This document shows, in pieces, positions 3,290 to 3,909 of a DNA stretch of 32,000 nucleotides. Made by a program: the position numbers and the translations under genes. The stretch's first letter is position 1, and each line of letters begins with the position of its first letter. The notes beneath the pieces are model-generated. The model saw only the letters and a list, made by a program, of their open reading frames with translations. It searched no databases and was not told the origin of the DNA. Source of the DNA: Archaeoglobus fulgidus DSM 4304 (GTDB lineage: Archaea; Halobacteriota; Archaeoglobi; Archaeoglobales; Archaeoglobaceae); NCBI RefSeq assembly GCF_000008665.1, contig NC_000917.1:1410001-1442000 (forward strand). The letters run 5' to 3'.

Positions 3290-3909
3290 TGGGTGGAATT
3301 TTGCTGTTGTGGGGTTTGAAGATGTTTAACAGAACACTCAGCTACAGCTCTTACGTGCTGAGCTACCAAGTTGAGAAGCAGCAGTACAACGTGAGTGTGC
3401 TGACGAGGATTATCTCCGTAAACGGCACCGACCTTTTCATGACAATGGTGAATATAGGTCCAAGGGACAGCAAGGCTCAGCCCGTCGCCGATATAGTGTT
3501 CTTCACTAACAAAACGAATCTGGCGGAGCACTACAGGTTGCTCGGCAAGGTTCTGAACGAGGTAAGGAAGGGTGACGAGACGAGCTGGGTTTGGAACAAG
3601 GCGAAGAACGAGCTTAGCTATTTGAGCAGGGTTGTTGAGAGGGAGATGGGGGAGTATAATGTTGAGGGTTATGCCGCAGCTACAACCATGGATATTGATG
3701 CTTGCGGAGCTTGCAAAGTTCTATTTGAAGTTGCGTGTGCAGTGGGTTGTGGTGTAGGAATGGCTACACTTTGTATACTTGCGGGATTGACAACGGGTGT
3801 GGGTGGGATTGCCTGTGCTGCGATTGCGGCTGCAGTCTGTTGGGCAATTGGAGAATACGGGTGCGATTCCGGTGCAGGATATGTATGCACTCAAATAGGT
3901 TACTGCTAA
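3286..3909 (+). CDS. 5'-truncated paralogue of the 1476..2516 precursor, carrying a 10-cysteine halocin-C8-like C-terminal peptide; no signal peptide ('orphan' cassette)
   Basis: aa 12-129 align with aa ~116-234 of the 350-aa track ORF (LAEHYRLLGKVLNEVRKGDETSWVWNKAKNELSYLSRVVE... vs LAEHYRILAKVLNEIRKGDDTSWVWNKAKNELNYLSRVVE...). Similarity ends after YNVEGY. The C-terminal 72 aa are DIDACGACKVLFEVACAVGCGVGMATLCILAGLTTGVGGIACAAIAAAVCWAIGEYGCDSGAGYVCTQIGYC. Confidence 0.75.
   Translation: MMGGILLLWGLKMFNRTLSYSSYVLSYQVEKQQYNVSVLTRIISVNGTDLFMTMVNIGPRDSKAQPVADIVFFTNKTNLAEHYRLLGKVLNEVRKGDETSWVWNKAKNELSYLSRVVEREMGEYNVEGYAAATTMDIDACGACKVLFEVACAVGCGVGMATLCILAGLTTGVGGIACAAIAAAVCWAIGEYGCDSGAGYVCTQIGYC

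Follow-up and report, generated by a model that had tools for sequence, protein, structure and literature searches.

A halocin-C8-type tail in an orphan cassette of a putative polymorphic archaeocin locus of Archaeoglobus fulgidus

Does a cysteine-rich C-terminal peptide encoded by Archaeoglobus fulgidus DSM 4304 belong to a working precursor of the halocin C8 type, or is it part of a different kind of system? The DNA analyzed here is a stretch of 32,000 nucleotides (nt) of the forward strand (NC_000917.1, positions 1,410,001 to 1,442,000), referred to as the window, in whose numbering coordinates are given unless another contig is named. An open reading frame (ORF) of 207 amino acids (aa) at 3286..3909 (+) ends with 72 aa (3691..3906, +) that a first-pass annotation had likened to halocin C8 (HalC8), the peptide that is released from the precursor ProC8 in Natrinema. 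We consider it likely that the locus is a polymorphic archaeocin locus and that these 72 aa are a halocin-C8-type tail in an orphan cassette of it. The sequence comparisons described below support the orphan cassette and the polymorphic architecture well; the toxin and immunity roles of the products are inferred by analogy with known systems.

Translation of 3691..3906 gives exactly the 72 aa proposed earlier, which form the C-terminus of the 207-aa ORF, and it confirms the 10 cysteines with a spacing of 2-7-3-7-13-7-7-7-5, the last residue being a cysteine. The peptide also contains 14 alanines and 13 glycines, and has a grand average of hydropathy (GRAVY) of +1.22, an isoelectric point (pI) of 4.05, and a mass of 6917 Da. 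Across 10,369 sliding segments of 72 aa, taken from all six-frame ORFs of the window, a count of at least 10 cysteines is reached at two places only: in this 72-mer and at the C-terminus of the ORF at 1464..2516. The cysteine-rich 72-mer is a real, non-chance feature. The NCBIfam model TIGR04449 (halocin_C8_dom; cutoff 24 bits) matches aa 140-207 of the protein over the entire model (positions 1-69 of 69) with an E-value of 3.5e-16 and 60 bits, and Pfam contains no model matching the 72-aa tail. BLASTP against a halocin C8-like protein of Natrinema gari (P0022) gave 33% identity over 93 aa (E 6e-9), with 10 of 10 cysteines of the 72-mer aligned and two gaps of one residue each. The tail of P0022 (DIDITGCIACKYAAGKVCTSGCSAADGFTCGLLGITIPVAGLSCLGFVEIVCTVADEYSGCGDAVAKEACNRVGLC, including the motif DIDITGCIACK) shows a cysteine spacing of 2-7-3-7-13-7-8-8-5, a mass of 7516 Da, a GRAVY of 0.80, and a pI of 4.24. 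Judged by this homolog, the likeness to the HalC8 spacing that the first-pass annotation had proposed was essentially right. A HalC8 sequence served solely as a probe for retrieving P0022 and was not used as evidence; a search with the P0022 tail returned P0022 alone. Homologs from Haloferax and Halobacterium carry the same halocin C8-like annotation, and the full-length haloarchaeal controls were drawn from a plasmid collection. The profile match and the alignment of all ten cysteines both support the halocin-C8 reading, and on this evidence the 72-aa tail is a true halocin-C8-family domain. The family is said to extend to diverse archaea and some bacteria.

The 72-mer was modeled with AlphaFold2 (AF2) as four helices, with a predicted local distance difference test (pLDDT) score of 75.5. 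Nine of the 10 Foldseek matches of this model in the PDB are saposin-fold membrane binders, including saposin A (template modeling score 0.65) and NK-lysin (0.54), at E-values of 2-9. The Asp that opens the 72-mer aligns with the Asp opening the DIDITGC motif of the Natrinema homolog and is nearly invariant across the family of related archaeal proteins described below (D237 in P0002, the precursor of strain DSM 8774). This conservation makes it the likely cleavage junction. HalC8 in its mature form likewise begins with such an Asp.

The exact 207-aa protein is present in the databases as AAB89672.1 / O28702 of A. fulgidus DSM 4304, and the ORF at 1464..2516 corresponds to AF_1568. An Archaeoglobus-like host had been deduced from the surrounding genes; the organism is indeed Archaeoglobus fulgidus, and the RuBisCO-like gene, the Nre gene, and the trp operon with its fused trpC-trpD are all found in the window. 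RefSeq holds a 195-aa version that starts at Met13, WP_148183473.1, under the name “halocin C8-like domain-containing protein,” and this accession appears among the halocin C8 homologs in Table S2 of a recent survey (bioRxiv 10.64898/2026.07.27.741052). That survey credits earlier work on the halocin C8 family and its bacterial homologs to Makarova et al. (2019). The halocin-C8 identity of the 72-aa tail is thus already on record and not a discovery; because the protein has been named both in RefSeq and in the 2026 survey, the claim at the level of the peptide adds nothing new. A literature search for the HalC8 peptide string and for AF_1567-AF_1569 returned nothing relevant.

The question that remains is what kind of gene carries this tail. 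The first-pass annotation implied a complete precursor, of which the tail part holds and the precursor part does not, the 207-aa ORF being a 5′-truncated orphan that lacks a signal peptide. The upstream neighbor AF_1568 (1464..2516, +; 350 aa) represents the full-length form: a signal peptide of the general secretory (Sec) type is followed by about 105 further residues of a beta-rich pro-region, by the region homologous to the orphan, and by a hydrophobic tail of 110 aa with 18 cysteines (type B; 2184..2513, +) that belongs to no NCBIfam or Pfam family. BLASTP aligns aa 6-174 of the orphan with aa 110-271 of AF_1568 at 48% identity. The orphan is thus made of the equivalent of AF_1568 residues ~110-240 plus its own halocin-C8-type tail (type A); it has neither a signal peptide nor the ~105 aa with which the pro-region begins, and a hydrophobic signal is found in full-length forms only. 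By this comparison the 207-aa ORF is a 5′-truncated orphan copy, not a complete ProC8-like precursor. For a released peptide of ~7 kDa, strain DSM 8774 is a likelier source than DSM 4304, because the DSM 4304 orphan is truncated and has no signal peptide.

The genes around the orphan are tightly packed. The 3′ end of AF_1568 overlaps the start of a gene for a membrane protein of 259 aa with ~6 predicted transmembrane helices (2510..3289, +), a candidate immunity partner of the type-B tail, and the stop codon of that gene overlaps the ATG of the orphan (ATGA). Directly after the orphan stop codon, GGAGGTG at 3910..3916 forms a perfect Shine-Dalgarno sequence, with the GTG start of a 59-aa ORF (3924..4103, +) 7 nt on; this ORF has two predicted transmembrane helices, and its product is a candidate for the cognate immunity protein that goes with the type-A tail. 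Ahead of the orphan itself, we found neither a Shine-Dalgarno sequence nor the conserved element of ~70 nt that is shared by other genes of the locus. This element, identified by blastn self-hits and alignment at 1409..1479 (+) with a second copy at 5879..5948, consists of a TATA-like box, GGTGGT, and then the ATG (TATATTCTCAAACTATGGTCAGAAACTACATATAGCAATTGATGTATTGTTTTAATGGTGGTAGCATG). It precedes AF_1568 and two other genes for secreted proteins of the locus, its copies in the DSM 8774 contig (L001) lie at 6203..6269, 7934..8004, and 10363..10432, and it probably serves as a shared promoter and leader. A scan for bacterial sigma-70 promoters and terminators was disregarded, the host being an archaeon.

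At the level of sequence and profile, the full-length form also differs from ProC8 in its N-terminal part, in agreement with the different pro-region that had been claimed for this member of the family. Pfam PF22862 (Hac8_like_N, the HalI immunity domain) detects the precursors of Haloferax volcanii pHV4 (E 1e-44) and Halobacterium salinarum (E 3e-51) and has no match in the Archaeoglobus proteins or in nine diverse members of their family; alignment of the pro-region profile with the haloarchaeal precursors by hhalign gave a probability of 0.2%, and full-length precursors align with the haloarchaeal proteins through the tail only. A Pfam scan of the precursors and the membrane proteins of the locus gave no match. 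The AF_1568 signal peptide (MLKKVLSLVLVLVMLSSSVVPVMA, about 1476..1547) is of the Sec type and has no twin arginine. Its signal region, MLKKVLSLVLVLVML to VMA, contains no RR, whereas the Haloferax control has NRRSFVRRAG, a signal for twin-arginine translocation (Tat); both calls were made by inspection. An AF2 model of the full-length DSM 8774 ortholog reached a pLDDT of 63.8 on average; most of the beta-rich pro-region scored higher, with means of 70-88 per block. The model had no significant neighbor in the PDB. Neighbors of the halR and halT1-3 kind were looked for in the ORFs scanned from 42 to 8303, where no domain of an ATP-binding cassette (ABC) transporter or regulator was detected, several of these ORFs matching nothing in Pfam. 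Nor did the locus yield any gene for a transporter or a peptidase. With no HalI domain, no Tat signal, and no halR/halT neighbors, the Archaeoglobus precursor is, as far as its sequence tells, not of the ProC8 type.

How, then, did a halocin-C8-type tail come to stand behind AF_1568? The two genes share a direct repeat of 164 bp, 84% identical between its left copy (2003..2166, +) and its right copy (3510..3673, +), which encodes the conserved end of the pro-region just ahead of the tail (the segment LAEHYR...WVWNKAKNEL...EYNVEGY in the left copy) and appears to act as a recombination substrate. The equivalent locus of A. fulgidus DSM 8774, whose flanks are 98.4-98.8% identical to those of the window, contains one precursor gene (P0002, 308 aa), followed by an identical 59-aa ORF. 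The two strains are collinear over 1..2166 and 3510..4178, and both repeat copies align to a single segment in DSM 8774, where tail B and the 259-aa gene are absent at this locus. The DSM 8774 gene resembles AF_1568 as far as about L001 8542; a mosaic stretch of ~60 bp leads over to sequence that from 8602 on matches the orphan at 100% identity. Compared with the orphan, all 18 differences within the ORF fall in 3516..3583; the segment 3584..4108, with the tail, the spacer, and the 59-aa ORF in it, is free of them. Because the differences end at 3583 and identity runs over 3584..4108, the DSM 8774 gene is, judging from its sequence, the product of a crossover within the 164-bp repeat, in which an AF_1568 front is joined to tail A. 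GenBank lists this gene (L001 8001..8927, AIG98577.1) as “Firmicute eSAT-6 protein secretion system EssA,” apparently a spurious name assigned by automatic annotation.

The same organization recurs with other tails. In a metagenomic contig resembling A. fulgidus (L003), collinearity with the window extends to 3673 and breaks off exactly where the pro-region gives way to the tail. The contig contains an array of four units: a full-length gene with tail B and a 259-aa gene; an orphan with a tail of 14 cysteines (type C) and a 333-aa gene with nine transmembrane helices; a remnant of tail D and a 359-aa gene with eight transmembrane helices; and an orphan with a halocin-C8-type tail of 12 cysteines (type A′) and an 85-aa gene with two transmembrane helices. 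Contig L008 has yet another order, in which a full-length gene with tail D and a D-type membrane gene are followed by a decayed tail-B orphan, a B-type membrane gene of 267 aa, and another orphan. The decayed orphan (L008 7619..7966) retains a pro-region fragment and the last ~20 aa of tail B, and the 267-aa partner behind it is still intact; here the partner gene seems to have outlived its tail.

A profile of the pro-region retrieved 15 loci in species-representative genomes, all of them Archaeoglobi, and 73 cluster representatives among 1.84 billion proteins. Most members with a complete C-terminus carry, after the nearly invariant Asp, a hydrophobic tail of 55-120 aa with 6-20 cysteines. 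Composition-corrected BLAST, used here since clustering without this correction put nearly all tails together in one cluster, divides the 69 unique tails into about 20 clusters with a threshold of E<1e-5 and into 29 with E<1e-8. TIGR04449 matched in five of 58 members of the pro-region family, and among the tail types tested singly only A and A′ match it. Taken together, strains appear to swap cysteine-rich tails by recombination, as bacteria do with polymorphic toxins. In four distant members of the pro-region family (P0089 and three others), an N-terminal rhodanese (sulfurtransferase) domain precedes the carrier and the cysteine-rich tail; these domains may bear on the chemistry of the many cysteines.

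If the tails are exchanged as modules, is each accompanied by a gene of its own? Six tail types occur in two or more loci, and across more than 20 loci in all these types keep a consistent partner directly downstream. Tail A is followed by an ORF of 51-65 aa with two transmembrane helices (window, L001, L019, L022, L027-L034), tail B by an ORF of 259-267 aa (window, L003, L008), tail C by one of 333-354 aa (L003, L007, L009, L016), tail D by one of 359-388 aa (L003, L016, L008), and tail E by one of 81-93 aa (L010, L014, L017). The partner of tail A′ is consistent in three of four loci, with 85 aa and two transmembrane helices in L003, L004, and L016, and with 155 aa and six helices instead in L013. 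A small partner ORF accompanies tail A in 11 of the 11 loci examined, which span two unrelated N-terminal contexts, namely the Archaeoglobus carrier and a signal-less region of ~110 aa (P0018, P0021, L027-L034). It starts about 15-30 bp past the stop codon in most loci (146 bp in L022), and its members share the motif LSY-x-[IV]-[ED]-G-K-V-N-W-I and are linked by transitive homology (E 6e-6 and 3e-9). The 59-aa ORF of the window has no NCBI accession and is in none of the gene calls among the contigs listed for the 259-aa protein; it appears to be an unannotated gene in the genome of the type strain. Of the 23 contigs read for the 259-aa protein, all eight places shown adjoin the 3′ side of an AF_1568 homolog of 344-350 aa. 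The 207-aa orphan follows the 259-aa gene in seven of these eight, and the eighth (L040, the same contig as L003) has a 240-aa orphan of type C. An ORF of this 259-aa type stands behind an intact type-B tail in the window and in L003, and behind a decayed type-B remnant in L008.

We do not claim that halocin-C8-type tails are universally followed by a partner gene. In Halobacterium salinarum pHSAL1, a hypothetical 68-aa ORF with two transmembrane helices (L038 3304..3510) lies 25 bp past the halocin C8-like gene. No similarity between this ORF and the 59-aa ORF of Archaeoglobus could be detected, and no small partner ORF is visible after the Natrinema gari gene. In L019, a Peptidase_C39-like protein (2817..4019, E 2e-17) is encoded ~600 bp downstream of a signal-less halocin-C8-type gene and could be the processing or export protease of this subgroup; it has no counterpart in the window. 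Downstream of the 59-aa ORF, the window encodes a secreted protein resembling Zn-dependent phospholipase C (4105..5127, +; PF00882, E 2e-13), with a signal peptide nearly the same as that of AF_1568; it is a neighbor that may or may not belong to the system. The phospholipase gene is intact in the window and has lost 528 bp (4179..4706) in DSM 8774 and L003. Behind it, two ORFs of 63 and 135 aa (5124..5315 and 5348..5755) correspond to a single ORF of 209 aa in DSM 8774, L003, and several metagenomic contigs, and therefore point to a frameshift in the window or to a sequencing error in the 1997 genome.

Which known system does this locus resemble? Like ProC8 of Natrinema sp. AS7092 and its haloarchaeal homologs, it encodes a hydrophobic C-terminal domain of ~70-76 aa with 10 cysteines in nearly the same spacing, which closes a larger precursor and is marked off by an Asp at the junction. 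It is unlike ProC8 in that the sequences of the pro-regions are unrelated, the signal of the full-length form is of the Sec and not of the Tat type, no halR/ABC-transporter neighbors were seen, a dedicated small membrane gene stands behind the tail, and the copy in the window is truncated. Another parallel is with polymorphic toxins that have arrays of orphan C-terminal (CT) domains and immunity genes, such as CdiA-CT/CdiI and Rhs (Zhang et al., 2012; PMC3482391). As in those systems, there is a conserved carrier with a pre-toxin segment as recombination site, many unrelated C-terminal domains, a cognate gene directly downstream, 5′-truncated orphans behind the main gene, and swapping from strain to strain. 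As far as polymorphic toxin systems can be recognized at the level of sequence, the locus shows the features that define them. It departs from them in its carrier, which is a small (~240 aa) Sec-secreted pro-protein and not a filament, an Rhs shell, or a PAAR spike; in its warheads, which are cysteine-rich peptides of a membrane type and not enzymes; in its putative immunity proteins, which are integral membrane proteins; and in its archaeal host.

Halocin-C8 domains on Rhs (Nitrolancea) or PAAR carriers likewise use this tail family as an exchangeable C-terminal module, and since such carriers have already been described, the exchangeable nature of the HalC8 module is not new; they differ in carrier and delivery route, the Archaeoglobus tail presumably being released as a free peptide. 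Operons for class II bacteriocins of Gram-positive bacteria share the small hydrophobic peptide with a membrane immunity gene directly behind it, but have a short double-glycine leader in place of the long pro-region; the many-cysteine tails also set the locus apart, and it contains no C39 ABC exporter. The predicted helical bundle of ~75 aa stapled by cysteine pairs recalls the saposin-fold antimicrobials (NK-lysin, amoebapores, saposins), from which it differs in that the structural similarity is insignificant, the sequences are unrelated, and the cysteine pattern is another. The Archaeoglobi carrier with its ~20 companion tail types was not found mentioned in the literature surveyed, which did not reach as far as Makarova et al. 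(2019; mBio 10:e00715-19).

By analogy with HalC8, polymorphic toxins, and class II bacteriocin loci, the system might work as follows. The full-length precursor would be exported by Sec and cut at the nearly invariant Asp just ahead of the tail, the freed hydrophobic, helical, cysteine-stapled peptide would attack the envelope or membrane of related cells, and the membrane protein encoded directly downstream would shield the producer. In DSM 4304, the type-B tail of AF_1568 would be the one that is actually deployed. Tail A would form a silent reserve, and the co-transcribed 59-aa gene would provide immunity against strains that deploy tail A, such as DSM 8774. Several points weigh against this scheme. 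Chemically, it is doubtful that an anaerobe that produces sulfide would have five disulfides outside its cells, and the saposin-like fold of the modeled tail is a hint only, its matches not being statistically significant. The orphan might also be expressed and have a role of its own, because its ORF is intact, translationally coupled, and stably kept in many populations. The second group of halocin-C8-type genes (P0018, L027-L034) has no visible signal peptide either, so that a missing signal does not prove missing export. Finally, HalC8 immunity has been placed in the N-terminal HalI part and not in a downstream gene (Sun et al., 2005). HalC8 itself is described as causing swelling and lysis of cells.

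Three other explanations have to be weighed. The 207-aa ORF could encode a halocin precursor that is complete and functional. Translation would start at its own ATG or at Met13, export would not depend on a signal, cleavage would release the 72-mer, and immunity would be due to the short pro-region or to the 59-aa protein. An intact frame, tail DNA that is 100% identical to the copy deployed in DSM 8774, the ATGA overlap suggesting co-translation with the upstream gene, and an arrangement kept in many populations would all suit such a precursor, as would the signal-less P0018 and L027-L034 precursors, one of which has a C39-like peptidase nearby. We nevertheless regard this as unlikely. Homology to the full-length members begins abruptly in the middle of the beta-rich domain, the identical 5′ stub carries a different tail in L003, and equivalent stubs in L008 are visibly decaying; moreover, the ORF has neither the upstream element nor a Shine-Dalgarno sequence, and no transporter or peptidase gene was seen in the locus. 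At the opposite extreme, the orphan and its 59-aa neighbor may be inert leftovers of an old rearrangement with no present function, in keeping with the frame-broken remnants among the orphans of L008 and L003 and with the missing promoter element. This is very improbable in view of the 525 bp (3584..4108) without a single substitution between strains that are ~1.2% apart in the flanks, the perfect Shine-Dalgarno sequence ahead of the 59-aa ORF, and the conservation of this small ORF family beside type-A tails in distant lineages.

The tails might also not be toxins at all. As membrane-embedded anchors or as determinants of kin recognition, they would present the conserved pro-region at the cell surface, and the variable membrane proteins encoded downstream would be their docking partners. 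Such a role would fit tails that are as hydrophobic as transmembrane segments (GRAVY 1.22) and have a dedicated membrane partner for each type, and hypervariable self/non-self modules without known toxins have been reported in Thermococcales (PMC8416519). Tails A and A′, however, come from the one family for which killing has been demonstrated (HalC8), this domain serves as C-terminal toxin on Rhs and PAAR carriers, and the junction Asp matches in position the Asp with which the HalC8-type region of the Natrinema homolog opens, so that we think a role as anchors or in kin recognition distinctly unlikely. The halocin-C8-type tail in an orphan cassette of a polymorphic archaeocin locus is thus the explanation that we favor.

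A wider proposal can be put forward only tentatively, as a possibility that we rate below the favored explanation of the locus itself. Archaeoglobi, with an outlier in Thermococcus, would possess an undescribed polymorphic archaeocin system, in which one Sec-secreted carrier is combined with ~20 interchangeable cysteine-rich warheads. Halocin C8 would be only one of these and most others would represent new archaeocin families, each with its own membrane immunity protein. Orphans would be stored and activated via the 164-bp segment, immunity would have moved from HalI to a separate gene, and DSM 4304 and DSM 8774 would form an asymmetric pair of killer and immune strains.

For A. fulgidus, the analysis brings to light a conserved gene for a 59-aa membrane protein, absent from the NCBI annotation. 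DSM 4304 would deploy tail B and has kept the presumed immunity gene for tail A, and DSM 8774 has tail A and neither tail B nor the 259-aa gene at this locus, which leads to the prediction of one-sided killing of DSM 8774 by DSM 4304. For the family as a whole, the organization of the locus suggests a shared secreted carrier that is equipped with many different warheads, the halocin-C8-type peptides of non-halophilic archaea being just one of them. If this is true, a set of unclassified cysteine-rich peptides would become candidate archaeocins.

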